A DNA stretch of 64,000 nucleotides from an uncultured Eubacteriales bacterium (GCA_902790495.1 CADASK010000024.1:5625-69624); one strand, 5' to 3'. Shown: positions 228 to 61,633, numbered from the stretch's first letter. Translations and numbers: made by a program. Notes: generated by a model not told the origin, from the letters alone.

Positions 228-285
228 CGAAGGGGTGCAGGGGGCGATCGCAAAGCCCCCTGCCCGCGCCCGCAGGCGCGGAACC
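228..285 (+). repeat. Family-1 bipartite hairpin repeat, short form (copy C1)
   Basis: cgaaggggt GCAGGGGG cgatcgcaaag CCCCCTGC CCGCGCC cgca GGCGCGG aacc: two adjacent perfect hairpins (H1, H2). Intergenic. Confidence 0.9.
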
Positions 286-352
286 TGATGCAGTTGAACT
301 ACGGAAGCTCATGAGCTACCGCTACATAGACAAATCAAGGAGGTCAATCGCT

Positions 353-1408
353 ATGGGAATCTTTGACGTGCTGCGCAGCCAGGCCATCGACGTGATCGAA
401 TGGTCCGACAGCAGCTCCAACACCATCGTGCACAAGTACGACATGAACGGCAAGGAGATCATGATGGGCGCGCAGCTCACCGTGCGCGAGAGTCAGGTGG
501 CGATCTTCGTCAACGAGGGTCAGCTCGCCGACATCTTCCAGCCCGGCCGCTACGAGCTGCAGACCTCCAACATGCCGATCATGACCGCGCTGAAGGCCTG
601 GAAGTTCGGCTTCAACAGCCCCTTCAAGGCGGACGTGTACTTCATCAACACCCGCCAGTTCCTCGACCTGAAGTGGGGCACGGCCAACCCCGTGATGATG
701 CGGGACGCCGAGTTCGGCATGATCCGCCTGCGCGCCTTCGGCAACTACGCCTTCCGCGTGGTGGACCCCGAGACCCTGCTGCGCGAGTGCTTCGGCACCG
801 CCAAGACCTACACCGTGGAGGACATCGAGGGCCAGATCAAGCGCACCGTGGTCTCCAATCTCTCCGACGCCATCGCCGAGAGCAAGATCCCCGCGCTGGA
901 CATCGCCGCCAACTACGACGAGCTGGCCGGCTACGTGCTGCAGGCCGTGAACCCCAAGGTCGCGGGCCTGGGCGTGCAGCTGACCGCCTTCACCATTGAG
1001 AACGTGTCCCTGCCCGAGGAGGTCGAGAAGGCGATGGATCGCCGCACCTCCATGGGCGTGGTCGGCGACCTGAACAAGTACACCCAGTACCAGGCGGCCG
1101 AGGCCCTGCGCGAGAGCGCCAACAACCCCTCCGGCATGGCCGGCGCGGGTGTCGGCGTGGGCGCGGGCGTGGCCATGGGCCAGGCCTTCGCCAGCGCGAT
1201 GCAGGCCAACCAGGCGCCCGCCGCCCAGGCTGCCCCCGCGGCCGCTGCCGGCAGCTTCTGCCCCGCCTGCGGCAAGCCCGTGCCCGCCGGCGCGAGGTTC
1301 TGCCCCAACTGCGGCCAGAAGCAGAGCGCCGATCCCGTGTGCCCCGCCTGCGGCGAGCCCGTGCCCGCCGGCGCGAAGTTCTGCCCGAATTGCGGGAAGA
1401 AGATGTAA
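353..1408 (+). CDS. SPFH/band-7 domain protein with two C-terminal zinc-ribbon motifs (YdjI-like)
   Basis: ATG 353 lies 9 nt after AAGGAGG. The long ORF beginning MGIFDVLRSQAIDVIEWSD... resembles SPFH-domain proteins. The C-terminus carries two copies of CPACGxPVPAGAxFCPNCGxK. Confidence 0.75.
   Translation: MGIFDVLRSQAIDVIEWSDSSSNTIVHKYDMNGKEIMMGAQLTVRESQVAIFVNEGQLADIFQPGRYELQTSNMPIMTALKAWKFGFNSPFKADVYFINTRQFLDLKWGTANPVMMRDAEFGMIRLRAFGNYAFRVVDPETLLRECFGTAKTYTVEDIEGQIKRTVVSNLSDAIAESKIPALDIAANYDELAGYVLQAVNPKVAGLGVQLTAFTIENVSLPEEVEKAMDRRTSMGVVGDLNKYTQYQAAEALRESANNPSGMAGAGVGVGAGVAMGQAFASAMQANQAPAAQAAPAAAAGSFCPACGKPVPAGARFCPNCGQKQSADPVCPACGEPVPAGAKFCPNCGKKM
1256..1402 (+). repeat. In-frame tandem duplication (period 81 nt) encoding the two zinc ribbons
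   Basis: ttctgccccgcctgcggcaagcccgtgcccgccggcgcgaggttctgcccc... at 1256 recurs as gtgtgccccgcctgcggcgagcccgtgcccgccggcgcgaagttctgcccg... at 1337. Confidence 0.85.
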
Positions 1409-1429
1409 TCCTGTCCCGATGAAAGCCTT

Positions 1430-1459
1430 GCCCGGAGTCCTTGCGGCTCCGGGCTTTTT
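1430..1459 (+). terminator. Rho-independent terminator after the SPFH gene
   Basis: GCCCGGAG tccttgcgg CTCCGGGC followed by TTTTT. Confidence 0.8.
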
Positions 1460-1504
1460 CTGTCGAAAGCGACGCGCCCCTTCCATATTCATGTCTTTTT
1501 TGTG

Positions 1505-1533
1505 TTGACAATCGACCAGAAATACAGTATACT
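1505..1533 (+). promoter_or_regulatory. Sigma-70-type promoter of the ABC transporter operon
   Basis: TTGACA (1505-1510), 17-nt spacer, TATACT (1528-1533). Confidence 0.6.
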
Positions 1534-1589
1534 TTCAACAGAACAAGAGCAGCGAAATGCTCGGACAATACAGAAAGGGGATCCGTACC

Positions 1590-2621: not shown

Positions 2622-2671
2622 GGCGTAAGTCTGCTCGTTTATCCTCTCCATCCATATTGCCTGCCAGCAAA

Positions 2672-2730
2672 GGATTCCGCGCCTGCGGGCGCGGGCCGGG
2701 GGCTTTGCGATCGCCCCCGGCACCCCTTCG
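2672..2730 (-). repeat. Family-1 repeat, short form (C2), intercistronic
   Basis: The reverse complement reads cgaaggggt GCCGGGGG cgatcgcaaag CCCCCGGC CCGCGCC cgca GGCGCGG aatcc. Lies between the SBP and ATPase genes of one operon. Confidence 0.9.
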
Positions 2731-2838
2731 CCCGCCCGTCTTATATGGCTGGAAAGAGGCTAGTAACTCAATGAAGCCGGGGCGTTCTGCGGCTGTGCGG
2801 AACAGCCCCGGCTTTTCCAAAAGAAGGAGAGGAATCAT

Positions 2839-3918: not shown

Positions 3919-3923
3919 GCGCC

Positions 3924-5579
3924 ATGACAAAACGCCGCTATTCCCCGATCTGGACCTTCCTGGCCCTGGCCATCCTGGCGCTGTTCATCATCTTCGTGGT
4001 GTACCCGCTGGCCCTGGTGCTCTACAAGAGCGTGGTGGACCCCACCACCAACGGCTTCACCCTGGAGAACTTCACCCGCTTCTTCACCCGCAAGTATTAC
4101 ACCAACACCCTGAAGAACTCCTTCAGCGTGACCATCGTGTCCACTCTCATCAGCGCGACGCTGGGCCTGGTGATCGCCTACATCACCCGGCAGTACCGCA
4201 TCGCGGGCAGCAAGTGGCTGAACATCGCCATCGTGGTCAGCTACCTGTCGCCGCCCTTCATCGGCGCCTACGCCTGGATCCAGCTGCTGGGCCGCAACGG
4301 CATCTTCACCCGCTTCATCAACGGGGTCTTCGGCGCGAACTTCGGCGGCATCTACGGCTTCGCGGGCATCGTGCTGGTGTTCTCCCTGCAGTCCTTCCCG
4401 CTGGTGTACATGTACGTCAGCGGCGCGCTGCAGAACCTGGACAACTCCCTGAATGAGGCCGCCGAGAGCCTGGGCGCGAACAACTTCCAACGCGTCACCG
4501 GCATCATCCTGCCGCTGGTGCTGCCCACGGTGCTGGCCTCGGGCCTGCTGGTGTTCATGCGCGTGTTCAGCGACTTCGGCACGCCCATGCTCATCGGCGA
4601 GGGCTACCGCACCTTCCCCGTGGTGCTGTACAACCAGTTCATGGGCGAGGTGACCAACGACAGCTACTTTGCCGCGGCCCTGTGCGTCATCATCATGGCC
4701 ATCACGCTGGTGTTCTTCTTCCTGCAGCGGTGGATTGCCGCGCGCCACAGCTACGCCATGTCGGCCCTGAAGCCCATGCAGCCCCGCGCCCAGCGCCCGC
4801 TGCCGAAGGCTCTGTGCCATATCTTCGTCTACCTCGTGGTGCTCATCGCCCTCCTGCCGCAGATCACGGTCATTGTGACCTCCTTCCTGAAGGAGTCCAC
4901 GCCGGGCATCTTCACCACCGAGCTGTCCCTCATCAACTATGAGACCATCTTCTCCAAGAACCCGCGCGTGATCCCGAACACCTACCTCTTCGGCCTGGCG
5001 GCCATTGCCCTGGTGGTCATCTTCGGCGTGCTGATCTCCTACCTGGCGGTGCGGCGCAAATCCGTCATCACCACCACGGTGGATACCTTGACCATGCTGC
5101 CCTACATCATCCCGGGCTCCGTGCTGGGCATCTGCTTCCTGTACGCCTTCGCCACCAAGCCCCTGGCGCTGACGGGCACCGCGGCCATCATCATCATCGC
5201 GCTGACCGTGCGCCGCATGCCCTACACGATCCGCTCCTCCACCGCCATCATCAGCCAGATCAGCCCCTCCATCGAGGAGGCCGCGGTCTCCCTGGGCGCG
5301 TCCGAGGTGCGCTCCTTCGGCGAGATCATGCTGCCGATGATGATGCCCGGCGTCATCTCCGGCGCCATCATGAGCTGGGTGACGGTGATCAGCGAGCTGT
5401 CCAGCTCCATCATGCTCTACCGCGCATCGACCCAGACCCTGACCGTCGCGGTCTACACAGAGGTCATCCGCGACTGCTTCGGCAACGCCGCGGCCTATTC
5501 CACGGTGCTGACCGTGACGAGCATTGTGTCGCTGCTGCTGTTCTTTAAGCTCACGGGCAGAAGGGATATCAGTGTCTGA
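3924..5579 (+). CDS. ABC transporter permease, duplicated two-domain type (FbpB-like)
   Basis: 551-aa highly hydrophobic protein with two permease halves. Starts 5 nt after the ATPase stop. Confidence 0.85.
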   Translation: MTKRRYSPIWTFLALAILALFIIFVVYPLALVLYKSVVDPTTNGFTLENFTRFFTRKYYTNTLKNSFSVTIVSTLISATLGLVIAYITRQYRIAGSKWLNIAIVVSYLSPPFIGAYAWIQLLGRNGIFTRFINGVFGANFGGIYGFAGIVLVFSLQSFPLVYMYVSGALQNLDNSLNEAAESLGANNFQRVTGIILPLVLPTVLASGLLVFMRVFSDFGTPMLIGEGYRTFPVVLYNQFMGEVTNDSYFAAALCVIIMAITLVFFFLQRWIAARHSYAMSALKPMQPRAQRPLPKALCHIFVYLVVLIALLPQITVIVTSFLKESTPGIFTTELSLINYETIFSKNPRVIPNTYLFGLAAIALVVIFGVLISYLAVRRKSVITTTVDTLTMLPYIIPGSVLGICFLYAFATKPLALTGTAAIIIIALTVRRMPYTIRSSTAIISQISPSIEEAAVSLGASEVRSFGEIMLPMMMPGVISGAIMSWVTVISELSSSIMLYRASTQTLTVAVYTEVIRDCFGNAAAYSTVLTVTSIVSLLLFFKLTGRRDISV

Positions 5580-5629
5580 GTAACTTTTTTCTAACCAGCC
5601 CTATCCTCATGTTCAACGTAAGGGCGATG

Positions 5630-5755
5630 CGAAGGGGTCCCGGGGGCTCGGAGCGCCCGGAAAACGCCATGTTATGGCGTTTTCAGCGGAGAGCGGGCGG
5701 CAGCCCCGGACCGACCGCAAAGCCCCCGGGTCGCGGCCCGCAGGCCGCGAAATCC
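5630..5755 (+). repeat. Family-1 repeat, long form (C3)
   Basis: cgaaggggt CCCGGGGG [ctcggagcgcccgGAAAACGCCATgttATGGCGTTTTCagcggagagcgggcggcagccccggaccga] ccgcaaag CCCCCGGG TCGCGGCC cgca GGCCGCGA aatcc. Confidence 0.9.
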
Positions 5756-5776
5756 TCTTGCTGACATAAAAAGAGA

Positions 5777-5819
5777 CCACAGGTTCCTTACCTTTACAAG
5801 GTAAAGCCTGTGGCCTTTT
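5777..5819. terminator. Bidirectional terminator between the ABC operon and clpB
   Basis: CCACAGG ttcc TTACCTT tac AAGGTAA ag CCTGTGG nested hairpin, flanked by an A-run upstream and a T-run downstream. Confidence 0.7.
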
Positions 5820-5834
5820 CCATATGTAAGCGGA

Positions 5835-5892
5835 GTTTCCGCGCCTGCGGGCGCGGGTCAGGGGCTTTGCGGTCGCCCCTGACAACCCTTCG
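5835..5892 (-). repeat. Family-1 repeat, short form (C4)
   Basis: The reverse complement reads cgaagggtt GTCAGGGG cgaccgcaaag CCCCTGAC CCGCGCC cgca GGCGCGG aaac. Confidence 0.9.
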
Positions 5893-5933
5893 CGTCGCCT
5901 CCTGGTGATCAACGATAAAGTTGATCATGGAAG

Positions 5934-8531
5934 TTACACTGTGACAAACTGTCCATCCCTGACATCGACGGTGATCTCCTCCCCGGGCTTCACCGCGCCG
6001 GCGACGATCTTCCTCGCCACCAAGGTCTCCACGCGGCTCTGCAGGAAGCGCTTGAGCGGGCGCGCGCCGTAGACCGGGTCGAAGCCCTGGTCGATGACCT
6101 GCCGCATGGCCTCGTCGGTCAGCGTCACGTGCAGGCGGCTGTCCTTCAGGCGGTCGTTCAGGCTGTTCACCATCAGGCCCACGATGCGGGTGATCTCCTC
6201 GCGGCCCAGGGGCTTGTAGCAGATGATCTCGTCAATCCGGTTCAGGAACTCGGGGCGGAAGTGGGTCTTCAGCAGGCGGTCCACGATGCCGCGGGCCTCC
6301 TCGGAGATCTCGCCGTCGCGGATGCCCTCGAGGATCGCGTCGCTGCCCAGGTTGCTGGTCATGATGAGGATCGTGTTCTTGAAGTCCACGGTGCGGCCCT
6401 GGCTGTCGGTGATGCGGCCGTCGTCCAGCACCTGCAGCAGCACGTTGAACACATCCGGGTGCGCCTTCTCCACCTCGTCGAACAGCACGACGCTGTAGGG
6501 CTTGCGGCGCACGGCCTCGGTCAGCTGGCCGCCCTCGTCGTAGCCGACGTATCCGGGAGGCGCTCCGATGAGACGGGACACGGAGAACTTCTCCATGTAT
6601 TCCGACATATCGATGCGGATCAGGTTCTTCTCGTCGTCGAACAGGGCCTGGGCCAGAGCCTTGGCGAGCTCGGTCTTGCCGACGCCGGTCGGGCCGAGGA
6701 ACAGGAAGCTGCCCAGCGGGCGGTTCGGGTCCTGGATGCCCGCGCGGCTGCGCAGGATGGCCTCGCTGACCTTGGTCACGGCCTCGTCCTGGCCGATGAC
6801 GCGCTGGTGCAGGATGTCCGGCAGGTGCAGCAGCTTCTCGCGCTCGCCCTCCATGAGCTTGGCGACCGGGATGCCGGTCCAGCGGGCGACGATGCGGGCA
6901 ATCTCCTCGTCGGTCACGCGGTCGTGCAGCAGGCTGTCCTCGCCGCGGGCCTTTTCGGCCTCCGCCTCGGCCTCCTCCAGCTGCTTCTTCAGGGTGGGCA
7001 GGCGGCCGTACTTCAGCTCGGCGGCCTTGTTGAGGTCGTAGGCGCGCTCCGCCTTCTCAATCTCACCGTTCAGCTGCTCCAGCTGCTCGCGCAGGCTCGT
7101 GACCTTCTCGATCACGGCCTTCTCGCCCTCCCACTTGGCCTGCATGGCGTTGAAGCTGTCGCGCTCCTCCGCCAGCTGCTTCTGCACCTCCTCCAGGTGC
7201 GCCTTGGAGAGCTCGTCGTCGTCCTTCTTCAGGGCGGCCTCCTCGATCTCCAGCTGCATCATGCGGCGGCGTACCTCATCCATCTCGGTGGGCATGGAGT
7301 CGATCTCCGTGCGGATCATGGCGCAGGCCTCGTCCACCAGGTCGATGGCCTTGTCCGGCAGGAAGCGGTCGGTGATATAGCGGTTGGAGAGGGTCGCGGC
7401 GGAGATCAGGGCGCTGTCCTGAATCTTCACGCCGTGGAAGACCTCGTAGCGCTCCTTCAGGCCGCGCAGGATGGCGATGGTGTCCTCCACGGAGGGCTCG
7501 CCGACCATCACGGGCTGGAAGCGGCGCTCGAGGGCGGCGTCCTTCTCAATGTACTGGCGGTATTCGTTCAGCGTGGTCGCGCCGATGCAGTGCAGCTCGC
7601 CGCGGGCCAGCATGGGCTTGAGCAGGTTGCCGGCGTCCATGGCGCCCTCCGCCTTGCCCGCGCCGACGATGGTGTGCAGCTCGTCGATGAACAGCAGGAT
7701 GCGGCCCTCGCTCTTCTTAATCTCGGCCAGCACGGCCTTCAAGCGCTCCTCAAACTCGCCGCGGAACTTCGCGCCGGCGATCAGGCTGCCCATGTCCAGG
7801 GAGAACACGGACTTGTCCTTCAGGCTGTCCGGCACGTCGCCGCGCACGATGCGCTGGGCCAGGCCCTCGGCGATGGCGGTCTTGCCGACGCCGGGCTCGC
7901 CGATGAGCACCGGGTTGTTCTTGGTCTTGCGGCTGAGGATGCGGATCACGTTGCGGATCTCCGCGTCACGGCCGATGACCGGGTCGAGCTTCTGCTGCCG
8001 CGCCATCTCCACCAGGTCGGTGCCGTATTTCTTCAGCGAATCGTAGGTCTCCTCGGGGCTGTCGGAAGTCACGCGGGTCGCGCCGCGCACCTCGCTGAGG
8101 GCCTTGAGGAAGCGATTGAGGTCGAAGCCCGCGCGGCTGAGCACGGTCTTCATGCGCTCGTTGGGCTTCGAGGCCAGGCCCATCCACAGATGCTCCACGG
8201 AGATGTACTCGTCCTTCATCTGCTTGGCGCGGGCGTCGGCCTCGTTCAGGGCCTTGTCCAGCTCCTGGGTGATGTAGACCTTGTCGGCCTCCCGCCCGGG
8301 GCCGGAGACCCGCGGCATGCGCTCCAGGGCATCCTGCACGGCGGCCTTCAGGCTGTCCGCGCTGACCCCGCACTTGCCCAGCAGCTGCGGGATCAGCCCG
8401 CCCGCGTCCTCCAGCAGGGCCGAGGCCAGGTGCTCCTGATCCACCTGCATGTGCTGATAATCCACAGCGATGCGCTGCGCGCGCTGGATCGCCTCCAGCG
8501 ACTTCTGCGTATATTGGTTCATGGCTGCCAT
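5934..8531 (-). CDS. clpB: ATP-dependent chaperone ClpB
   Basis: 865 aa. Two AAA+ modules (GEPGVGKT and GPTGVGKT Walker A), a coiled-coil middle domain and a Clp N-domain. RBS aaggag 9 nt upstream of the ATG. Confidence 0.95.
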
Positions 8532-8568
8532 AGCTGTCAGCTCCTTTGCGTTGGTCTGCAGGTCAAAG

Positions 8569-8585
8569 TCTGACTTTCTTTGACC
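8569..8585 (-). promoter_or_regulatory. Candidate CtsR operator upstream of clpB
   Basis: The minus strand reads GGTCAAA gaa AGTCAGA. This has one mismatch to the CtsR heptad direct-repeat consensus (A/G)GTCAAA-NAN-(A/G)GTCAAA. It sits immediately downstream of the -10 box. Confidence 0.5.
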
Positions 8586-8594
8586 TTCATCTGC

Positions 8595-8623
8595 ATTCTA
8601 CAGCATTTGGGGAAAGAATGCAA
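8595..8623 (-). promoter_or_regulatory. Sigma-70-type promoter of clpB
   Basis: Minus strand: TTGCAT, 17-nt spacer, TAGAAT. Confidence 0.55.
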
Positions 8624-8723
8624 GGGGGTGCGGGAAATTTTTGCAAATTCTTTTGCGGGTTATAAGCAGGAAAAGCGCGGACGGGGCAGGCGCAGGATTT
8701 CACCTTGCGTCTTTTCATTTTTA

Positions 8724-8752
8724 TTGAAGGCGCGGCACTTGTGTGATATAAT
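8724..8752 (+). promoter_or_regulatory. Promoter with extended -10 for the RM gene
   Basis: TTGAAG, 17-nt spacer, TGaTATAAT (TG at 8744-8745, TATAAT 8747-8752). Confidence 0.5.
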
Positions 8753-8791
8753 TCAATGGGGTTATGAAAACAGCAATATGGAGGTTTACCC

Positions 8792-11572
8792 ATGAACGAC
8801 GTGCAGCAGCGCGCAGCGGCAAAGCACTTTGCGGATTACTGGAAAGGCAAGGGCTATGAGAAGGGCGACAGTCAAAAGTTCTGGCTTTCCCTGCTGACGG
8901 ATGTGTTCGGCGTGGAACACGCGGCGGAATTCATATCGTTTGAAGATCAAGTTCATCTTGACCACACCAGTTTTATAGATGGATATATCCCTGCCACCCA
9001 TGTTCTGATTGAGCAGAAAAGCATAGGCAAGAGCCTGTCACAGCCCATCCGGCAATCTGACGGTTCCCTGTTGAAGCCGATAGAGCAGGCAAAACGCTAT
9101 GCTAACGAACTGCCTTATTCACAACGTCCGCGCTGGATTGTCATTTCTAATTTTGAGTGTTTCCACGTTTACGATATGGAACACCCGCAGGCAGAAGCCA
9201 TAGAAATCAAGCTTGAAGACTTGCCTGAAGAGTATTACCGGCTTGAATTCCTGGTGAAGACCGGGGATGCGAACCTGCAAAGGGAAATGCAAATATCCTT
9301 TGACGCAGGCAAACTTGTCGGCAAACTGTATGACGCTTTCTTGAAGGAATACAGAGACCCCACCAACGAACACAGCTTGAAAAGCCTGAATGCGCTGTGC
9401 GTCCGCCTTGTTTTCTGCCTGTATGCCGAGGATGCGGGTATATTCGGCCGGCGTTTAATGTTCCATGACTATTTGCAGCACAACGGCATTTCCAAGGCAC
9501 GTCAGGCGTTAATCGACCTGTTCCGCGTGCTGGACACAAAAATCGAAGACCGCGACCCGTATATGGACGACGAGCTTGCATCGTTCCCTTACGTCAACGG
9601 CGGGCTTTTCAGCGATGAAAACATCGAGATACCTCGCATCAATGAAACCATTTTCGATCTGCTGCTGAACCAAGCCAGCGCGGCGTTTAACTGGAGCGAG
9701 ATCAGCCCGACCATATTTGGCGCTGTGTTTGAAAGCACCTTGAACCCGGAAACCCGGCGCAGCGGCGGCATGCACTATACCAGCATTGAAAACATTCACA
9801 AGGTCATTGACCCCTTATTCCTCGACGCATTGAAAACAGAGCTGGAAGACATCAAAGCAATCCAGCAGCCTGGCACAAGAAAGCGTCGTTTGGAAGCATA
9901 TCAGAACAAACTTGCTTCGCTGAAATTTTTGGACCCGGCCGCAGGCAGCGGAAATTTCCTCACCGAGAGCTATCTTTGTCTGCGCAGGCTGGAAAATGAA
10001 GTGATCGACTTGCTGCAGCAGGGGCAGATTGTCATCGGTGAGGCGATCAATCCGATCAAAGTATCCATTGCGCAGTTTTACGGCATTGAAATCAATGACT
10101 TTGCCGTGACCGTTGCTAAAACCGCTTTGTGGATTGCTGAAAGCCAAATGTTGAAGCGGACAGAAGATATAGTGCATTTGCAGCTTGATTTTCTGCCCTT
10201 GAAAAGCTATGTAAACATCGTTGAAGGAAACGCCCTGCGCATTGACTGGAATGATGTTATCCCGGCGCGGGAACTGTCCTATATTATGGGCAATCCGCCG
10301 TTTGTAGGCGCACGGATAATGACAAAAGTGCAAAAGGAAGATATTAATCTTATATTTGCTAAACGGAAAGGCGCAGGAAATCTTGATTATGTGTCGGCAT
10401 GGTATGAAAAAGCTACTGATTATATTTCTGGAACAAGAATCAATGCAGCCTTTGTGTCAACTAATTCCATTACTCAAGGGGAACAGGCAACCATATTATG
10501 GCAGCCTTTAATGGCAAAAGGTGTAGTTATTACTTTTGCATGGACAACTTTTAAGTGGGGCAGTGAATCAAATGACCCAGCCGCAGTTAGCTGTGTTATT
10601 GTTGGTTTTTCCGTAAATCCCCCAACTTCTGAACGTTTACTTTTTCAAAGCGAGCATTCATTTATCAAAGCAAACAACATAAATGCGTACCTGTTGAATG
10701 CGCCGAATATTTTTGTAACAAACAGAGCTAATACTTTGTGTAATGCCCCTGCAATCAATTATGGTAGTTTCGCTTTAGATGATGGAAACTATACAATAAG
10801 CGAAAAGGAATACTCCGAACTTATTGCACAGGATGAAACGATAACTGAATTGATGCGTCCATTTATTGGCGCACAAGAATTGTTGCACAAAAAGAAACGG
10901 TTTTGTGTTTGGCTAAAAGGTGTATCCCCCTCTAAGCTTAATGCTCATCCACTTATCAAAAACAAAGTGGCATTAGTTCAGGAATGGAGAAGCAAAAGTT
11001 CCCGGCAAAATACAGTAGCTTTAGCTGAGACCCCTACACTATTTGCAGAAGTAAGGCAACCAGATACGATGTATCTTGCAATCCCAACTGTTTGTAGTGA
11101 AAAAAGGCGTTATATACCTATGGCATTTTTGACACCAGATATTATAGCATCAAATCAATTATACATTGTTGGAAATGCTGACATATATCATTTTGGCGTC
11201 CTGATGTCAAATGTTCATATGGCGTGGATGCGTGCTGTATGTGGTAGATTAGAGTTAAGATATAGGTATTCGTCCGCCGTTGTTTATAATAATTTTCCAT
11301 GGCCTAATCCTACAGCCCAACAGCAAGAACGAATAAGAAAAACTGCACAGGCTATCATTGATGCACGTGCGCTTTATCCTGATAGCAGCCTTGCAGAGTT
11401 ATATGATGAAGTGTTAATGCCCCCGGAGCTGCGCACAGCCCACCAACAGAATGACCGCGCTGTATGGGAAGCATACGGCAAAGCATGGAACATCGGCAAA
11501 GAAAGTGAATGTGTCGCCTACCTGATGAAGCTTTATCAAACTATGACGGCGGCAGAGGGCAGCAAATCGTAA
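8792..11572 (+). CDS. MmeI-family Type IIL restriction-modification enzyme (fused nuclease, N6-adenine methyltransferase and specificity domain)
   Basis: 926 aa. The N-terminus has a PD-ExK-like IDGYIPATHVLIEQKS segment within an MmeI-like leader (FWLSLLTDVFGV). SAM motif I FLDPAAGSGNFL, motif IV NPPF (MGNPPFVGA), and a long C-terminal TRD. RBS ggagg 7 nt upstream. Confidence 0.85.
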   Translation: MNDVQQRAAAKHFADYWKGKGYEKGDSQKFWLSLLTDVFGVEHAAEFISFEDQVHLDHTSFIDGYIPATHVLIEQKSIGKSLSQPIRQSDGSLLKPIEQAKRYANELPYSQRPRWIVISNFECFHVYDMEHPQAEAIEIKLEDLPEEYYRLEFLVKTGDANLQREMQISFDAGKLVGKLYDAFLKEYRDPTNEHSLKSLNALCVRLVFCLYAEDAGIFGRRLMFHDYLQHNGISKARQALIDLFRVLDTKIEDRDPYMDDELASFPYVNGGLFSDENIEIPRINETIFDLLLNQASAAFNWSEISPTIFGAVFESTLNPETRRSGGMHYTSIENIHKVIDPLFLDALKTELEDIKAIQQPGTRKRRLEAYQNKLASLKFLDPAAGSGNFLTESYLCLRRLENEVIDLLQQGQIVIGEAINPIKVSIAQFYGIEINDFAVTVAKTALWIAESQMLKRTEDIVHLQLDFLPLKSYVNIVEGNALRIDWNDVIPARELSYIMGNPPFVGARIMTKVQKEDINLIFAKRKGAGNLDYVSAWYEKATDYISGTRINAAFVSTNSITQGEQATILWQPLMAKGVVITFAWTTFKWGSESNDPAAVSCVIVGFSVNPPTSERLLFQSEHSFIKANNINAYLLNAPNIFVTNRANTLCNAPAINYGSFALDDGNYTISEKEYSELIAQDETITELMRPFIGAQELLHKKKRFCVWLKGVSPSKLNAHPLIKNKVALVQEWRSKSSRQNTVALAETPTLFAEVRQPDTMYLAIPTVCSEKRRYIPMAFLTPDIIASNQLYIVGNADIYHFGVLMSNVHMAWMRAVCGRLELRYRYSSAVVYNNFPWPNPTAQQQERIRKTAQAIIDARALYPDSSLAELYDEVLMPPELRTAHQQNDRAVWEAYGKAWNIGKESECVAYLMKLYQTMTAAEGSKS

Positions 11573-11585
11573 CCCTTATTGTCTA

Positions 11586-11649: not shown

Positions 11650-11901
11650 TCAGCCGTGCAGGCCCTGCTCCTGGCGCTCCATGTTCTCGACCACCACATC
11701 GTAGATCTCGCCCAGGGACGCGCCGTACTCCAGCACCTTCCAGGGTTCGTTGGTGTGGAAGTGGATCTTGATCAGCTCGTCGTCGCCGACGGCCAGCAGG
11801 CAGTCGCCCTTGAAGTTCTCGGTGATGTAGTCGTTGATGGCGTCCTCGTCGAGGTCATGGCCTTCAATGAGGAGTTGGGTGTCGAATTTGAATTCCAGCA
11901 T
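11650..11901 (-). CDS. Small FakA/YloV (DAK2-fusion) C-terminal-like protein
   Basis: 83 aa. IKIHFHTNEPWKVLEYGASLGEIYDVVVENMERQ resembles the conserved segment of YloV/FakA-type proteins. RBS aaaggag 10 nt upstream. Confidence 0.45.
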   Translation of the reverse strand: MLEFKFDTQLLIEGHDLDEDAINDYITENFKGDCLLAVGDDELIKIHFHTNEPWKVLEYGASLGEIYDVVVENMERQEQGLHG

Positions 11902-11967
11902 CAGGGGTCAGCTCCTTTCAAACTTGATACTGTTTGCAAATGCGTTTGTTCGCGTAAAGGCGAGCGG

Positions 11968-12025
11968 CGAAGGTTTGCAAAGGGCGATCGCAAAGCCCTT
12001 TGCCCGCGCCCGCAGGCGCGGAACC
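11968..12025 (+). repeat. Family-1 repeat, short form (C5)
   Basis: cgaaggttt GCAAAGGG cgatcgcaaag CCCTTTGC CCGCGCC cgca GGCGCGG aacc. Confidence 0.9.
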
Positions 12026-12035
12026 TCTGCGCAGG

Positions 12036-12093
12036 GGATTTCGCCGCCTGCGGGCGGCGACCAGAGGCTTTCCGATCGCCTCTGGACTCTTCG
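12036..12093 (-). repeat. Family-1 repeat, short form, CCAGAGG subtype (C6)
   Basis: The reverse complement reads cgaagagt CCAGAGG cgatcggaaag CCTCTGG TCGCCGCC cgca GGCGGCGA aatcc. Tail-to-tail with C5. Confidence 0.9.
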
Positions 12094-12146
12094 GGGCAGC
12101 CGTTTGGTGAAAGGGCTTTGTGTCGCTCAAGGCAATTGTAAGGAAG

Positions 12147-13970
<1,824 letters not shown>

Positions 13971-14017
13971 AGGCTTGATAAGGCTCCTTGTCTCATAAAA
14001 CAGTTCATCATGTAACA

Positions 14018-14075
14018 TGCTGCGCCCCGAAGAGTCCAGAGGCGATCGGAAAGCCTCTGGTCGCCGCCTGGAGGC
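14018..14075 (+). repeat. Family-1 repeat, short form, CCAGAGG subtype (C7)
   Basis: cgaagagt CCAGAGG cgatcggaaag CCTCTGG TCGCCGCC tgga GGCGGCGA aactcc. Near-identical to C6 but inverted. Confidence 0.9.
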
Positions 14076-14112
14076 GGCGAAACTCCTGCTTCCAGGAGGT
14101 CTTTGGAGGAAG

Positions 14113-19318: not shown

Positions 19319-19366
19319 CAATTCCCAAGCTCAAGCAAAGAACTGATCCCTTTCTAAGGCGATGCC

Positions 19367-19426
19367 CGAAGGTTTCCAAAGGGCGATCGGAAAGCCCTTT
19401 GGTCGCCGCCCGCAGGCGGCGAAATC
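19367..19426 (+). repeat. Family-1 repeat, short form (C8)
   Basis: cgaaggttt CCAAAGGG cgatcggaaag CCCTTTGG TCGCCGCC cgca GGCGGCGA aatc. Confidence 0.9.
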
Positions 19427-19465
19427 TCTTGGATACAAATCTATCTGCTGCCGAAACAGGCAATG

Positions 19466-19591
19466 CGAAGGGGTCCCGGGGGTTCGGAGCGCCCGGAAAA
19501 CGCCATGTTATGGCGTTTTCAGCGGAGAACGGGCGGCAGCCCTGGACCGATCGCAAAGCCCCCGGGTCGCCGCCCGCAGGCGGCGAAATCC
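19466..19591 (+). repeat. Family-1 repeat, long form (C9)
   Basis: cgaaggggt CCCGGGGG [ttcggagcgcccgGAAAACGCCATgttATGGCGTTTTCagcggagaacgggcggcagccctggaccga] tcgcaaag CCCCCGGG TCGCCGCC cgca GGCGGCGA aatcc. Confidence 0.9.
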
Positions 19592-20820: not shown

Positions 20821-20880
20821 AAGGGGGTTCGTCTGCAACATGAAAGCCATTCACAATAGCTGCCAAAACAAGTGCGGCTG

Positions 20881-20977
20881 CGAAGGGTTGGAGGGGGCTC
20901 GGAGCGCCCGGAAAACGCCATGTTATGGCGTTTTCAGCGGAGAGCGGGCGGCAGCCCCGGACCGACCGCAAAGCCCC
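20881..20977 (+). repeat. Family-1 repeat, long form, 3'-truncated (C10)
   Basis: cgaagggtt GGAGGGGG [insert] ccgcaaag cccc, after which the H1 3' arm and H2 are missing. Confidence 0.85.
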
Positions 20978-20987
20978 AAGTGCGGCG

Positions 20988-21047
20988 CGAAGGTTTCCAA
21001 AGGGCGATCGCAAAGCCCTTTGGTCGCCGCCCGCAGGCGGCGAAATC
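20988..21047 (+). repeat. Family-1 repeat, short form (C11)
   Basis: cgaaggttt CCAAAGGG cgatcgcaaag CCCTTTGG TCGCCGCC cgca GGCGGCGA aatc. Lies 10 nt after truncated C10. Confidence 0.9.
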
Positions 21048-37232: not shown

Positions 37233-37646
37233 TTATGTGTTTCTTTCAGCTTGGACAGCTGGAGATTCCGCGCCTGCGGGCGCGGGCAAAGGGCTTTGCG
37301 ATCGGTCCGGGGCTGGTCGCCCGCTCTCCGCTGAAAACTCCATAACATGGAGTTTTCCGGGCGCTCCGAGCCCCCTCCACCCCTTCGCCCCTTCGCCTGA
37401 GTGAGCTTCTTCCGCAATCTCAGCAAGAAGCTGGGTGATCTCGCGGGAGAGGCGGCGGGTGTCGGGCGGAGCGGCTTCGGGGCGCTCGAAGAGGCCGTAG
37501 TGGCGGCCCAGCAGCTCGGCGGCCTTGTAGCGCTCGCTGGTCTTCACGGCGGCGTCCTCCGGCTGCTCGCCGCGCAGGATGGACGTCATCACCCGCAGCA
37601 CCTCCTCCGGCTGGGCGATGGCCGGGTCGCTCGTGCGTCTGGTCAT
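37233..37646 (-). CDS. Terminase small subunit-like protein (C-terminal half only; tail encoded by a repeat)
   Basis: VKTSERYKAAELLGRHYGLF matches the conserved Terminase_2-type motif, but the N-terminal HTH is absent. The last ~50 codons are read through family-1 copy C12. ATGA overlap with the upstream gene. Confidence 0.5.
   Translation of the reverse strand: MTRRTSDPAIAQPEEVLRVMTSILRGEQPEDAAVKTSERYKAAELLGRHYGLFERPEAAPPDTRRLSREITQLLAEIAEEAHSGEGAKGWRGLGAPGKLHVMEFSAESGRPAPDRSQSPLPAPAGAESPAVQAERNT
37264..37387 (-). repeat. Family-1 repeat, long form, chimeric (C12)
   Basis: The reverse complement reads cgaaggggt GGAGGGGG [..GAAAACTCCATgttATGGAGTTTTC..] tcgcaaag CCCTTTGC CCGCGCC cgca GGCGCGG aatc. 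The H1 arms do not match each other. The inner hairpin carries a compensatory G-C to T-A change. Confidence 0.9.
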
Positions 37647-38059
37647 GCGGCCGCCTCCAACCTGCGGGTGAATTCCGCGCGGATGCGCTGCACATGCCGC
37701 GGCGACAGCCGGGTTGTCTCGGCGATGGCCTCGCAGGTTTCCCCGTAGGCGTAGTAGTCCTCGAGAATGGCCCGGTTGCGGCTGTTCGGCGCCAGGCGCA
37801 GGATCTGCCTCAGCCGGGGACGGATGGCCGCCAGGCGCTGTTCGTTCTCCTCCAGCTGCCTCAGGTAGGCGTCTCGGTGCTGCTCCGCCGCGTAGCGCGG
37901 CTCGTTGGTGCCGGGCAGTTGTCCCGGCGCGCAGGACCCTCGCAGGCCCGCCGGCCCCAGCCGCTCCTCCAGGCTGTCCAGCGTTCTCCTCAGCGCCCGC
38001 GATTCCCGCGCCATCTCCCGGCAAAGGCTCAGGCATTCCAGATCGGTCAGGGTTTCCAT
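37643..38059 (-). CDS. Sigma-70 region-4-type HTH protein (phage late regulator, ArpU/RinA/DUF1492-like)
   Basis: RNRAILEDYYAYGETCEAIAETTRLSPRHVQRIRAEFTRRL is a region-4-like HTH. Lies directly upstream of the packaging genes. Confidence 0.55.
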   Translation of the reverse strand: METLTDLECLSLCREMARESRALRRTLDSLEERLGPAGLRGSCAPGQLPGTNEPRYAAEQHRDAYLRQLEENEQRLAAIRPRLRQILRLAPNSRNRAILEDYYAYGETCEAIAETTRLSPRHVQRIRAEFTRRLEAAA

Positions 38060-38113
38060 GCTTCATTCTCCTCTCTATGCGAATGTTTGTTCGCTCAGTG
38101 CGTCTGCATCATA

Positions 38114-47377: not shown

Positions 47378-47482
47378 GGGTTCCGCGCCTGCGGGCGCGG
47401 GCAAAGGGCTTTGCGATCGGTCCGGGGCTGCCGCCCGCTCTCCGCTGAAAACGCCATAACATGGCGTTTTCCGTTCCGCGCC
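47378..47482 (-). repeat. Family-1 repeat, long form, 5'-truncated/rearranged (C13)
   Basis: The reverse complement reads ggcgcggaac gGAAAACGCCATgttATGGCGTTTTCagcggagagcgggcggcagccccggaccga tcgcaaag CCCTTTGC CCGCGCC cgca GGCGCGG aaccc. Abuts the DUF2812 stop codon. Confidence 0.85.
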
Positions 47483-47483
47483 T

Positions 47484-47990
47484 TTATTCGTGAAGCAGGC
47501 GTTCCTTCTCCAGGGCTTCCTTTTTCCCGTGGATGCGGCCCAGGGCGTACATCAGCAGCGTGGCGCACAGCAGGTTCGCCCAGCCGAAGCGGGACGGGCT
47601 GAAGCTGTTGACAAAGCCGATCAGCAGGTTCGCGCCGCCCACCGCGGCCAGCATCTTGCCGATCTTGTCCAGGTGGCCGATGCGCGAATCGATGTCGGAA
47701 AACAGATCAAAGGGGCCGTCCGCCGTCTTTTTTCGGAAGTAGATCCACATCGCGTATCGGCCGATGTATTCCGCGCCGGTCTCCTGCATGAAGGAGATAT
47801 AGGCCTCGTCATAGGGGTGCATTTCCAGCCGCACGCTGTACTCGCCCGGCTCGCAGCACACAAAATGGTAGGTGGCGAGCCCCACGTCCTCCAGCACCCA
47901 GCCGTTCATCGCCATCTCGTTGAGCCAGGTCTCTTCCTTTTCAAAGCTCCAAACCCAGAACCATTTCCGGATCGTCTTTCTGTTCTCCAT
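47484..47990 (-). CDS. DUF2812 domain membrane protein
   Basis: RKWFWVWSFEKEETWLNEMAMNGWVL matches the DUF2812 N-terminus. Typical partner of PadR regulators. Confidence 0.7.
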   Translation of the reverse strand: MENRKTIRKWFWVWSFEKEETWLNEMAMNGWVLEDVGLATYHFVCCEPGEYSVRLEMHPYDEAYISFMQETGAEYIGRYAMWIYFRKKTADGPFDLFSDIDSRIGHLDKIGKMLAAVGGANLLIGFVNSFSPSRFGWANLLCATLLMYALGRIHGKKEALEKERLLHE

Positions 47991-47992
47991 CG

Positions 47993-48490: not shown

Positions 48491-48543
48491 GGATTCCGCG
48501 CCTGCGGGCGCGGCCAGGGCCTTCCGATCGCCCTGGACCTTCG
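48491..48543 (-). repeat. Family-1 repeat, short form (C14)
   Basis: The reverse complement reads cgaaggt CCAGGG cgatcggaagg CCCTGG CCGCGCC cgca GGCGCGG aatcc. Confidence 0.9.
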
Positions 48544-48613
48544 GGCTGCCCGCTTTGCAAACGTTTTGCTTTCTGATCTGAAGCAGAAGCCTTTCTGGTT
48601 CAAATACCCAAGC

Positions 48614-51166: not shown

Positions 51167-51251
51167 TCTCGGACGCCCAGGCAAGGATCCCAGGGACGGA
51201 CGGCCTTCGTCCGTCCCTGATTTTCCATTCGGACAAAGGGGGAAGCGTACT

Positions 51252-52799: not shown

Positions 52800-52812
52800 C
52801 GGGGGTTCAAGC

Positions 52813-54027: not shown

Positions 54028-54070
54028 CATGGCCTTCCGCCATGACCAACCAAGGAGGGAATGGGCAGAC

Positions 54071-55594: not shown

Positions 55595-55623
55595 GAGATT
55601 CCGCTGCCATATCAACGCGGCGG

Positions 55624-55747
55624 CGAAGGGGTGCAGGGGGTTCGGAGCGCCCGGAAAACGCCATGTTATGGCGTTTTCAGCGGAGAACGGGCGGCAGCCC
55701 CGGACCGACCGCAAAGCCCCCTGCCCGCGCCCGCAGGCGTGGAATCC
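55624..55747 (+). repeat. Family-1 repeat, long form (C15)
   Basis: cgaaggggt GCAGGGGG [insert] ccgcaaag CCCCCTGC CCGCGCC cgca GGCGTGG aatcc. The H2 stem has a G-T (G-U) pair only if read on the plus strand. Confidence 0.9.
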
Positions 55748-55792
55748 CTGTGCCAAAGCACAAAGCTTTCAAACCAGAAAGGATGACAACCC

Positions 55793-56428: not shown

Positions 56429-56434
56429 AAAACT

Positions 56435-56471
56435 GCCCTCTCCGTCAGCGCTTCGCGCTGACGGAGAGGGC
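56435..56471 (+). repeat. Family-2-related 17-bp perfect hairpin (D8)
   Basis: GCCCTCTCCGTCAGCGC ttc GCGCTGACGGAGAGGGC, 7 nt after the DUF4867 stop. No T-tract. Confidence 0.8.
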
Positions 56472-56542
56472 AAGCAAGCAAAGCATCCAAATATCCCATC
56501 ATTTTATCACCCCATCGACTATTTTGAGAGGAGCTACCGCCT

Positions 56543-58021: not shown

Positions 58022-58145
58022 GCTATACACCGCCCAGCCCAGCGGTCATCTGACCTGAAAGGGGGACCGACCATCTTCAGACCGCGGCACGGCGGTTCAA
58101 AAACACATGAATATTTCATGCAAAAAAACGTACAGGAGGATTACC

Positions 58146-59393: not shown

Positions 59394-59419
59394 GCGATTG
59401 CATCAGCAATGATGGAACC

Positions 59420-59472
59420 GGAGACGGCCCGTCGAGGGAGAATATTCCGAAGAGGGCCGTCTCCCTCTTTTT
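59420..59472 (+). terminator. Intra-operon terminator/attenuator hairpin after the SBP gene
   Basis: GGAGACGGCCC ...23 nt... GGGCCGTCTCC ctcttttt. Confidence 0.7.
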
Positions 59473-59493
59473 ATACAATGCCTTGACAGCAGG

Positions 59494-59551
59494 GGTTCCG
59501 CGCCTGCGGGCGCGGGCAAAGGGCTTTGCGATCGCCCTTTGCAAACCTTCG
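59494..59551 (-). repeat. Family-1 repeat, short form (C16), intercistronic
   Basis: The reverse complement reads cgaaggttt GCAAAGGG cgatcgcaaag CCCTTTGC CCGCGCC cgca GGCGCGG aacc. Confidence 0.9.
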
Positions 59552-59612
59552 CCTGCATCCCTCGCGATCGCATTGTAAGAAAAGAATGGTCTAACAAAAA
59601 GGACTGCGAAAG

Positions 59613-60581
59613 ATGAAGAAGCATTGGTCTTATCGGCTGAGCGTGTTCGCCTTCCTGCTGCCGGGTCTCATCCTCTTCGTCGGCATCCTCATCGCGCCCA
59701 TCATCATGTCGGTGTTCTACAGCCTGAATGACTTCAAGGCCATCTCCGGCTCCGATATGACCTTCGTGGGCCTGAGGAACTACGTGGAGCTGTTCAGCCG
59801 GCAGCTGGCCAACGAGAAGGGCACGCTCTTCGCCAACGTCAACTACATGGGAGACGCCCTGGTCAACGCCCTGGTGCTGGGCGCGCTGTCCGTGTTCATC
59901 CAGCTGCCCCTCGCCCTCATCATCGCCCTCAAGCTCAGCAAGGGCATCCGCGGCGAGCGGGCCTACCTGTCCATCTACTTCATGCCCGTGCTGATCTCCA
60001 CGGTCATCATCGGCCAGCTGTGGATGAACATCTACGAGCCCGACGGCCTGCTGAACGCGGCGCTGGGCGCGCTGGGTGTCCGCGACCAGGTGTTCACCTG
60101 GATCACCTCCCACATCCACTCCACCAAGATGCCCTTCAAGGGCGGCTGGACGGGCTACAAGGAGACCGCCCTGATCGCCGCCTTTGTGCCGATCCTGTGG
60201 CAGTACATCGGCTACCACATGCTGCTGATGTACGCGGGCATCAAGGGCGTGCCGGCGGACCTGCTCGAGGCCGCGCAGCTGGACGGCTGCACCGAGGGCC
60301 AGGTCAACCGCCACATCGTGATTCCCTACATCAAGCCGATCCTCAAGGTCTGTGTCATCTTCGCGGTGACGGGCTCGCTCAAGTCCTTCGACCTCATCTA
60401 CACCCTGATGAAGGACACCCGCCGGGCTGAGCTGCCCAGCACGTTGATGTACAAGCTGACCTTCCTCAACAACCGCTACGGCCTGGGCAGCGCCATCGCC
60501 GTGGTGCTGATCGTGCTGTGCTTCGCCTTCGCGCTGCTGATCAGCCTTGCGTTCAGGGACAGGGGGGAGAAAGTCGCATGA
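59613..60581 (+). CDS. Carbohydrate ABC transporter permease (CUT1, MalF-like)
   Basis: 322-aa polytopic protein containing the EAA-loop region LLEAAQLDGCTEGQVNRHIVIPYIKP. Confidence 0.85.
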   Translation: MKKHWSYRLSVFAFLLPGLILFVGILIAPIIMSVFYSLNDFKAISGSDMTFVGLRNYVELFSRQLANEKGTLFANVNYMGDALVNALVLGALSVFIQLPLALIIALKLSKGIRGERAYLSIYFMPVLISTVIIGQLWMNIYEPDGLLNAALGALGVRDQVFTWITSHIHSTKMPFKGGWTGYKETALIAAFVPILWQYIGYHMLLMYAGIKGVPADLLEAAQLDGCTEGQVNRHIVIPYIKPILKVCVIFAVTGSLKSFDLIYTLMKDTRRAELPSTLMYKLTFLNNRYGLGSAIAVVLIVLCFAFALLISLAFRDRGEKVA

Positions 60582-61480
60582 AAGTCGGAAAGAAAAAGGC
60601 GTCCCTCATCCTGGTGCACCTACTGCTGCTCGTGCTGGTGGTCATCAACCTGTTTCCCCTGTACTGGATGCTGACCTTCTCCCTGAAGGACAACGACGAG
60701 ATCTTCGGCGGCTACCTCAAGGACGACACCGGCGCCATCATCTACGATGCCAGCGGCGAGAAGATCCCCGTGGCGCGCAACATGATCGGCTTGCCGCGCA
60801 CCTGGCGCTGGAGCAACTACACCAAGGCGCTGAACACAGGCAACATGGGGCGCTACTTCCTCAACAGCCTGATCGTGTCCGCCTCGGCCATCATCATCAC
60901 GCTGATGGCGGCCTTCATGGCCACCTACGCCATGACGCGGCTGGTGTGGAAGGGCCGGAAGATGATGAACAAGTTCTTCATGCTCGGCCTGACCATCCCG
61001 ATCCACGCCGCCCTGGTGCCCGTGTTCCTGATCCTCTCGCGGCTGAAGCTGCTGGATACCTACACGGCCCTGATCGTGCCCTACGCGGCCTTCTCGCTGT
61101 CCATGGGCATCCTGATTAGCGCGGGCTTCATGGGGGATATCCCCTATGACCTGGACGAGGCCGCCTTCCTGGACGGCTGCACCGAGTGGGGCATCTTCGG
61201 CCGGGTGATCCTGCCGCTGATGATGCCCGCCACCGCCACCGTGGGCATCTACACCTTCCTGCAGTGCTGGAACGAGCTGCTCTTCGCCACCATCTTCGTC
61301 AGCAAGGGCGAGTACGTCACCCTGCCCGTGGGCGTCAAGCAGCTGGTGGGCCAGCACACCACCGACTGGGGCCCTGTGGGCGCGGCGCTGGCCATCGCGA
61401 CCATCCCGACGATGATCGTCTATGTGCTGCTGAGCCGGAAGATTCAGGAGGGCTTCATCGCCGGTGCGGTCAAGGGCTAA
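60578..61480 (+). CDS. Carbohydrate ABC transporter permease (CUT1, MalG-like)
   Basis: ATGA overlap with the upstream gene. EAA loop LDEAAFLDGCTEWGIFGRVILPLMMP. Confidence 0.85.
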   Translation: MKVGKKKASLILVHLLLLVLVVINLFPLYWMLTFSLKDNDEIFGGYLKDDTGAIIYDASGEKIPVARNMIGLPRTWRWSNYTKALNTGNMGRYFLNSLIVSASAIIITLMAAFMATYAMTRLVWKGRKMMNKFFMLGLTIPIHAALVPVFLILSRLKLLDTYTALIVPYAAFSLSMGILISAGFMGDIPYDLDEAAFLDGCTEWGIFGRVILPLMMPATATVGIYTFLQCWNELLFATIFVSKGEYVTLPVGVKQLVGQHTTDWGPVGAALAIATIPTMIVYVLLSRKIQEGFIAGAVKG

Positions 61481-61513
61481 AACCCTTTCAACAGACCAAA
61501 TTCAAGCGGCAGG

Positions 61514-61633
61514 CGAAGGGGTGGAGGGGGCGCCGAACGCCCGGAAAACTCCACAGTGTGGAGTTTTCAGTGAGGCGAAAGCGGCAGCGACATGATCGCA
61601 AAGCCCCCTCCCCGCGCCCGCAGGCGCGGAACC
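61514..61633 (+). repeat. Family-1 repeat, divergent long form (C17)
   Basis: cgaaggggt GGAGGGGG [cgccgaacgcccgGAAAACTCCACagtGTGGAGTTTTCagtgaggcgaaagcggcagcgacatga] tcgcaaag CCCCCTCC CCGCGCC cgca GGCGCGG aacc. Confidence 0.9.

Follow-up and report, generated by a model that had tools for sequence, protein, structure and literature searches.

What kind of element can recur seventeen times in 64 kb of a bacterial genome, change its stems from copy to copy and yet keep its loops constant: a structured RNA, a DNA site maintained by its host, or mobile DNA? The question is raised by a two-hairpin repeat in a stretch of 64,000 nucleotides from an uncultured Eubacteriales bacterium (GCA_902790495.1 CADASK010000024.1:5625-69624; the whole stretch is termed here the window). 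Our analysis points to the last of these answers: the family probably consists of non-autonomous, interspersed mobile DNA repeats, similar to the repetitive extragenic palindromes (REPs) and REPINs or to MITEs, which are miniature transposable elements with inverted repeats. We class it among the interspersed palindromic mobile repeats, a known kind of element, and the family itself is apparently undescribed. It is unusual in having two hairpins whose loops are strictly conserved, an inserted domain that is optional, and a core common to many species in differing flanks.

The loop CGATCGSAAAG, with at most one mismatch allowed, occurs 17 times in the window, as opposed to a mean of 2.9 times in dinucleotide-preserving shuffles (n = 100), none of which reaches 17. 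A covariance model trained on ten short copies recovered the same set and, with its filters off, detected no extra or decayed copies in the window. Both searches thus returned the 17 positions given in the initial annotation, and the order of the two hairpins described there was confirmed when the copies were aligned in register. The core (~60 nt) consists of two adjacent G+C-rich hairpins, arranged as follows: a head, CGAAGG(K)(K)T; the first hairpin (H1), with its constant 11-nt loop CGATCGSAAAG; the second hairpin (H2), which abuts H1 directly and has the loop CGCA; and a tail, RAAYC. The core is closed by a short pairing of AGGKKT with AAYCY. Per-copy parsing yielded the same H1 5' arms as were originally listed (GCAGGGGG, GCCGGGGG, CCCGGGGG, GTCAGGGG, GCAAAGGG, CCAAAGGG, CCAGAGG, CCAGGG and GGAGGGGG), together with the same three H2 types (CCGCGCC, TCGCGGCC and TCGCCGCC). 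The H1 arms (6-8 bp) are perfectly complementary in 14 of the 17 window copies, again as first reported.

This simple layout applies to the short form of the repeat, of ~60 nt. Seven of the 17 copies, however, exhibit a long form of ~125 nt, which the initial description had missed and in which an extra hairpin domain of ~63 nt is lodged inside the H1 loop. Designated by a single position, as are other copies below, these are 5712, 19548, 20963, 37294, 47409, 55706 and 61593. In the long form ~63 nt, including a third hairpin, H3 (GGAAAACGCCATgttATGGCGTTTTC), separate the H1 5' arm from the conserved loop downstream. Like the other stems, H3 covaries: ten long copies from three genomes show GCCAT/ATGGC, TCCAT/ATGGA, TCCCC/GGGGA and TCCAC/GTGGA. 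Ten of the window copies are on the plus strand and seven on the minus strand; 13 are singlets, and there are only two tail-to-tail pairs. A small open reading frame (ORF) running through the core (ATG...CCGAAGG...) was considered and rejected, since differences in stem length shift its reading frame.

The pairing of the stems was assessed in 147 distinct aligned copies. Watson-Crick pairs occupy 98.9% of the stem cells; the corresponding figures are 81% for shuffles and 34-49% for slid controls. In 12 of the 16 stem pairs both sides change, and double changes (372 cells) far outnumber one-sided changes (~13). Compensated stem change with constant loops indicates a constraint on the folded hairpin, and not only on primary sequence. 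To that extent the initial proposal of selection on a folded RNA, or on a cruciform or single-stranded DNA structure, was well founded; its RNA option is disfavoured by the mismatches, orientation and turnover described below.

The stem variants represent linked haplotypes: a change in H1 type goes with changes in H2 type, in the head (GGTTT or GGGGT) and in the tail, and one or two stem types predominate in each genome. JAFRPG contains 26 copies with CCAGGGG and another 26 with CCAGAGGG, JAFWQU contains 22 with CCAGGG, and CALVVZ contains 16 with CCAAAGGG. The covariation therefore lies between amplified subfamilies and not among independently evolving copies. Compensatory changes in stems are already known in mobile repeats, both in REPINs, where hairpins are commonly maintained in this manner (PMC3116915), and in the bcr1 repeats of Bacillus (PMC3184786). 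Given these precedents, the linked subfamilies, the one or two variants per genome and the replacement of whole units (see below), we could not uphold the earlier assertion that copying and pasting of a MITE would not produce such a pattern. A more general caution is that stems which covary perfectly around constant loops do not in themselves make a case for a functional RNA.

Turnover of the repeat is rapid. A comparison of strains for presence or absence had been suggested at the outset, and individual copies are indeed polymorphic between strains that are 90-99% identical. Copy 59524 is located inside a segment of ~121 nt that is absent from L085 (~90% identical), and copy 61593 is absent from the matching intergenic region of the same strain. 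L106 (~95% identical) has copies 11985 and 12068, whereas L108 (96-99% identical) lacks them, and both strains lack copy 14043. In the gap between an ABC permease gene and clpB, the copies of the window and of L108 share positions and orientations and differ in subfamily, in both arms as well as in H2 (GTCAGGGG with CCGCGCC and the loop CGACCGC in the window; CCAAAGGG with TCGCCGCC and the loop CGATCGG in L108). Here the whole unit has been replaced, by conversion or reinsertion, and replacement of whole units explains how the arms stay complementary without selection on each copy.

Rearrangement between copies is also evident. In place of the adjacent copies 19384 (short) and 19548 (long), L108 has a single long copy that joins the two and whose arms, CCAAAGGG and CCCCCGGG, do not match; this is the product expected of recombination between neighbouring copies. 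The three window copies with imperfect H1 stems are themselves rearrangement products: 20963 is truncated on its 3' side, 37294 is a chimera, and 47409 has lost its 5' part. In L117 and L118, which over 20 kb match the window at 99.9-100% identity, copy 47409 is complete, with 64 more nucleotides and matching arms GCAAAGGG/CCCTTTGC. Relative to these two assemblies the window shows a single deletion of 64 nt within this copy (window 47473; L117:3340-3402), which could either be genuine variation between strains or have arisen because the assembly collapsed at the repeat.

The position of the copies relative to genes was determined from gene calls based on the G+C content of third codon positions (GC3), which is ~0.9-0.95 in real genes. 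Sixteen of the 17 window copies are intergenic. The exception to what had been called a strictly intergenic repeat is copy 37294, which forms the end of an ORF: the 3' end of the frame reads through it, and the upstream part of the frame carries a coding-type GC3 signal. In the multi-genome copy set, the copies located between tandem genes are sense in 53 cases and antisense in 48, and convergent gaps hold 49 copies compared to 9 in divergent gaps, the background gaps being equal in number (55 and 55). REP elements likewise favour gaps between convergent genes (Tobes and Pareja, as related in PMC3184786). Terminator-like G+C-rich hairpins with T runs occur at 5770-5830, 59420-59470 and 61655-61700, often within 20-40 nt of copies; an example is GACCACAGG...CCTGTGGCC, between the convergent permease and clpB genes. 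The proximity of copies to terminators suggests insertion or tolerance there.

The distribution of the family was examined by an exact-pattern scan, with exact loop sequences, of 185,579 species-representative genomes. Counting that of the window, at least 27 species-level genomes carry the family (at least 26 other assemblies and at least 95 DNA blocks), and the covariance model identified 224 copies in 745 kb from the 27 genomes. Among the matches listed, the carriers are all uncultured gut, rumen or faecal Clostridia, and include 'Faecalibacterium sp. CAG:74', Ca. Egerieenecus and Christensenellales metagenome-assembled genomes (MAGs). Proteins of the window are also found in MAGs recorded as 'Clostridia bacterium' (spelt Clostidia). 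Close relatives of the ABC permease at 57% G+C (L001-L010) have no copies in that region. The TypA protein of L120 is 98% identical to that of the window (12147-14015) but is coded by far more A+T-rich DNA; close relatives in this host group therefore differ sharply in G+C content and codon usage (GC3 of the window, ~0.95). In keeping with the initial failure to recognise a named family, Rfam 15 gave no matches at the gathering threshold over the whole window, and at E values up to 10 only spurious weak matches in the region 5580-5935. Nothing in the annotated plasmid and phage collections matched a long copy by BLAST, a pattern scan of IMG/VR found just 5 contigs, and searches of the published literature turned up no description of the family.

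In other genomes the core is embedded in larger units. In JAFWQU it forms the apex of a unit of ~165 nt with terminal inverted repeats ATACCAATCTCAAG... and ...CTGAGATTAGTAT, and in JAFRPG two diverged cores are placed head to head in a unit of ~330 nt with the ends GGTTCTTCACG... and ...CGTGAAGAACC; in both cases the terminal inverted repeats fold into long hairpins. In CALVVZ the core has another context, of ~190 nt. In the window genome, conservation of the flanks ends ~10 nt beyond the core. An extended closing stem specific to each copy was rejected, as the flanks of a given copy pair no better with each other than with those of other copies (permutation p = 0.52). What is conserved, therefore, is the core module, each lineage having flanks of its own. 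No consistent direct repeats border the JAFWQU units or occur at the sites polymorphic between strains, a weak result in that the ends are imprecisely placed. Five same-orientation cores form a head-to-tail array with a period of ~100 nt at L105:6223-6703 (JAFRPG010000016.1), like the ordered clusters of REPINs or bacterial interspersed mosaic elements (BIMEs). JAFWQU also displays a second expansion of the H1 loop, of 18 nt (CGCCAGTCCGGCTGCGGA), on the 3' side of CGATCGGAAAG (L042:1754-1856, L058:2221-2321, L093:5175-5276 and 5531-5636, and L103:4911-5012). From the 18-nt and 63-nt expansions it follows that both sides of the conserved loop accept extra hairpins.

Taken together, this is an abundant, fast-turnover, strand-indifferent repeat, in which every propagating lineage has its hairpins intact and its loops invariant. 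We propose that units may be copied whole via a folded single-stranded DNA intermediate, the loops of which would be recognised by a putative enzyme, in a manner resembling that of REP-associated tyrosine transposases (RAYTs) or IS200-type HUH enzymes on the hairpins of REPs or insertion sequence (IS) ends. Conversion and recombination between copies would also spread the units. Selection would act on which units replicate: only those with intact stems would propagate, so that new stem variants would be fixed as complementary pairs and would then expand as lineage-specific subfamilies. Copies would persist at the least harmful sites, namely gene 3' ends and chiefly convergent gaps, and any effects on mRNA stability or termination would be secondary.

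Several observations weigh against this reading. The search for a RAYT- or IS200-like transposase, which had been recommended initially, revealed no IS200/Y1-like ORF in the ~850 kb around copies, in two weak searches (phmmer with an IS608 TnpA query, and a regular expression for HUH and Y motifs) that covered a small part of each genome. Clustering of the ORFs near copies, all against all, produced no recurrent protein family except components of ABC transporters. Pfam analysis of ten unannotated ORFs of the window showed no transposase. None of L085, L106, L108 and L120 provided a clean empty site with a target-site duplication, the L120 site being uninformative because the DNA is divergent despite the near-identical TypA protein. 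The polymorphic sites differ over the whole intergenic segment, including 30-45 nt of non-repeated flank, and so do not define where the mobile unit ends in the window genome. Preservation of the core across many species in differing flanks could also be explained by a host-level function. Finally, the constancy of the loops across species is in part an artefact of detection, since the scan demanded exact loops; additional copies in the same blocks, detected by the model and not by the pattern, have the same loops.

The first alternative is that the repeat is a structured RNA: it might stabilise an mRNA in cis or mark a site of processing, or be a small ribozyme or non-coding RNA with a three-way junction. 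Selection on the RNA fold would then account for the constant loops and the covarying stems, and mobility would provide only dispersal. The predicted folds of the copies are more stable than those of shuffles (z between -2.6 and -5.3), the junction has invariant loops, the optional domain occupies one fixed position and contains a covarying stem of its own, and the core is conserved in at least 27 species. In addition, several copies sit between the substrate-binding and permease genes of ABC operons, and classical mRNA-stabilising REPs occupy such positions. The features expected of an RNA are nevertheless absent. An RNA under selection would tolerate G·U pairs and not A·C, whereas a DNA hairpin, or random decay of young copies, predicts equal numbers of G·T and A·C mismatches; the stems contain 12 of the former and 11 of the latter. 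Both strands fold equally well, the orientation of copies relative to the flanking genes is random (53 vs 48, as above), copies are not retained at orthologous positions even between strains 96-99% identical, and Rfam offers no match, even at E values up to 10. We consider this explanation unlikely.

A second alternative is a DNA site maintained by the host, at which a nucleoid, topology or site-specific recombination protein binds the cruciform or its loops, and which spreads mainly through gene conversion from one intergenic region to another, more than through transposition. The palindrome CGATCG within the invariant loop and the symmetrical use of both strands would suit such a role, and the precedent is provided by BIMEs, which bind IHF and gyrase (PMC3184786). 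Conversion would likewise fit the replacement of whole units at one site in two strains, the lack of target-site duplications at the sites seen, and a shared pair of copies that is near-identical between strains with 5% coding divergence. The last point loses force on inspection of its surroundings: the low-divergence tract (~11750-12149) begins inside a gene, and thus resembles a tract of strain-level recombination rather than a sign of constraint on the copies. This tract shows 4 differences from L106 in 400 nt, comprising part of a FakA-like gene, the intergenic region and the two copies, compared to ~5% in the coding DNA of typA, and is probably the result of recent recombination between strains. 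Moreover, the bursts of a single variant in particular lineages, like the units with terminal inverted repeats, are what selfish amplification typically yields, and presence of the copies varies between near-identical strains. A host-maintained site is, in our view, quite improbable.

Least credible is the notion that the core is an immobile passenger, or a preferred target, in unrelated MITEs and that the 63-nt insert is a second element targeting the H1 loop, for which one could invoke the wholly different flanks and terminal inverted repeats around the same core in different genomes, the insertion at one loop position within varied H1 stems (CCCGGGGG, GCAGGGGG, GGAGGGGG and CCAGAGG) and the 18-nt expansion on the other side of the loop in JAFWQU, but in the window genome the core is abundant and diverse without conserved flanks past ~10 nt, the insert never occurs outside an H1 loop in ~900 kb, and stems can be reshuffled, too, when long and short copies recombine.

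The individual copies of the window lie among genes that include those for ClpB, TypA, PrfC, GalM, xylulokinase and sugar ABC transporters. The first short copy (227..286, plus strand; H1 GCAGGGGG/CCCCCTGC, H2 CCGCGCC) is intergenic, upstream of an SPFH/Band_7 gene (311-1408), and the second (2672..2731, minus strand; H1 GCCGGGGG/CCCCCGGC, H2 CCGCGCC) is antisense, between ABC substrate-binding and ATPase genes. A tail-to-tail pair around a terminator hairpin follows. Its first member, 5712 (5629..5754, plus strand), is a long copy in which H1 CCCGGGGG/CCCCCGGG encloses the 63-nt insert with H3, and H2 is TCGCGGCC; at this site strain L108 holds a copy of another subfamily. The second member (5834..5893, minus strand) is short, with H1 GTCAGGGG/CCCCTGAC, the loop CGACCG and H2 CCGCGCC, and is located 3' of clpB. 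Between this pair and the next lies a low-G+C island (8643-11573; 49% compared to 64%), whose ORF 8792-11572 (plus strand) codes for a complete MmeI-type (type IIL) restriction-modification enzyme; in L108, elsewhere 96-99% identical, the island is missing and its place is taken by a gene for an LRR_5 protein.

Around typA there are three short copies. Copy 11985 (11967..12026, plus strand; H1 GCAAAGGG/CCCTTTGC, H2 CCGCGCC) is tail-to-tail with 12068 (12037..12094, minus strand; H1 CCAGAGG/CCTCTGG, H2 TCGCCGCC), which is 3' of typA, and 14043 (14027..14084, plus strand; the same H1, with H2 TCGCCGCC and the loop TGGA) is antisense between prfC and typA. Four plus-strand copies are found further on. 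Short copy 19384 (19366..19426; H1 CCAAAGGG/CCCTTTGG, H2 TCGCCGCC) is followed by long copy 19548 (19465..19590; H1 CCCGGGGG/CCCCCGGG, H2 TCGCCGCC), upstream of galM. The 3'-truncated long copy 20963 (20880..20977), with the 5' arm GGAGGGGG, ends after CGACCGCAAAGCCCC and abuts a short copy at 20987..21047 (H1 CCAAAGGG/CCCTTTGG, H2 TCGCCGCC).

The next two copies, both long and on the minus strand, are rearranged. The chimeric 37294 (37263..37388) combines a 5' arm GGAGGGGG with a non-matching 3' arm CCCTTTGC, and contributes the last ~50 codons of an ORF. The region 37233-38066 (minus strand) contains two small genes in overlapping frames, one of them with an HTH_23 domain, in an apparently phage-derived stretch; the second gene runs into the copy and its stop codon is inside the repeat, which thus serves as its C-terminus. 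Copy 47409 (47378..47473) owes the loss of its 5' part to the 64-nt deletion, with CGGAA microhomology at the junction. Just past the stop codon of a DUF2812 gene, at 47474-47490 (minus strand), an orphan fragment, AGGCGCGGAAC (CCCTGC in L117), resembles the H2 3' arm and tail of another copy, and may be what is left of an element that occupied the site earlier.

Of the remaining four copies, the short one at 48491..48544 (minus strand) has the 6-bp H1 CCAGGG/CCCTGG, the loop CGATCGGAAGG and H2 CCGCGCC. Long copy 55706 (55623..55747, plus strand; H1 GCAGGGGG/CCCCCTGC) has an H2 of CCGCGCC with one mismatch (GGCGTGG), and is 3' of the xylulokinase gene. Short copy 59524 (59493..59552, minus strand; H1 GCAAAGGG/CCCTTTGC, H2 CCGCGCC) is antisense between sugar substrate-binding and permease genes. 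The last copy, 61593 (61513..61634, plus strand), is a long one with a divergent insert; its H3 is TCCAC/GTGGA, its H1 GGAGGGGG/CCCCCTCC and its loop TGATCG.

Among known systems, the family shares with REPs and REPINs (associated with RAYTs of the Y1/HUH type, mainly in Proteobacteria) an abundance of G+C-rich extragenic palindromes, within-genome subfamilies, compensatory changes in the hairpins, the bias towards convergent gaps and, in some genomes, inverted doublets (head to head in JAFRPG) and tandem clusters. Unlike REPs, it has two different hairpins with invariant loops of 11 and 4 nt rather than one imperfect palindrome, and unlike REPINs its window copies are mostly singlets and its host is an uncultured lineage of Clostridia. 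Membership of the REP-RAYT system is not established, as the head, CGAAGG(K)(K)T, is not of the GTAG type and no RAYT was seen in the ~850 kb around copies. Like the bcr1 repeats of the Bacillus cereus group (~155 bp), this is a cruciform-like repeat of a Firmicute; both have two independent stem-loops, show compensatory base-pair changes and differ in genomic distribution from one close strain to another (PMC3184786). In contrast, bcr1 has 5-bp direct repeats, which were not found here, and is reported to be transcribed (PMC3184786), while the core described here is ~60 nt with strictly conserved loops, a comparison made at the level of description.

The terminal inverted repeats of the JAFWQU and JAFRPG units, the intergenic location and the lineage-specific bursts recall MITEs such as Correia/NEMIS, RUP and Chunjie. 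Classical MITE membership is also not established, inasmuch as neither a target-site duplication nor, in the 8-kb blocks around matches, a parent IS with matching ends was seen. Unlike MITEs, moreover, the window copies have no conserved terminal inverted repeats beyond AGGKKT/AAYCY, and a single core occurs in different terminal-inverted-repeat contexts across genomes. As in the palindrome-associated transposable elements (PATEs) derived from IS200/IS605 and in the attC sites of integrons, structure is kept while stem sequence varies, and the recognition of folded single-stranded DNA proposed here would be a further likeness. Unlike PATEs, the copies show no strand bias (10 plus, 7 minus) and no evident conserved 5' target tetranucleotide, and no TnpA was found around them; unlike attC sites, they are scattered in both orientations among housekeeping genes (clpB, typA, prfC) and form no cassette array.

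REPIN-RAYT systems persist for long periods by vertical inheritance (bioRxiv 10.1101/2021.07.10.451892), and persistence in a lineage is a further trait that the present family shares with them. It is conceivable, though we think it rather unlikely, that the core is the cis-recognition module of an unrecognised, vertically inherited replicator-enzyme partnership in a Firmicutes lineage, resembling REPIN-RAYT but with another substrate architecture and perhaps another enzyme, or else a novel structured nucleic-acid motif, active in its own right, that was captured by several unrelated MITEs. At approximately one copy per 2-4 kb, the family would number hundreds of copies per genome in widespread uncultured Clostridia of the gut and rumen, and annotation pipelines at present give it no name. 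It causes breaks in assemblies, gives rise to chimeric intergenic regions and provides markers at the strain level. With its conserved core in changing flanks, the family is a good system in which to seek an enzyme that mobilises REP-like DNA outside the Proteobacteria.

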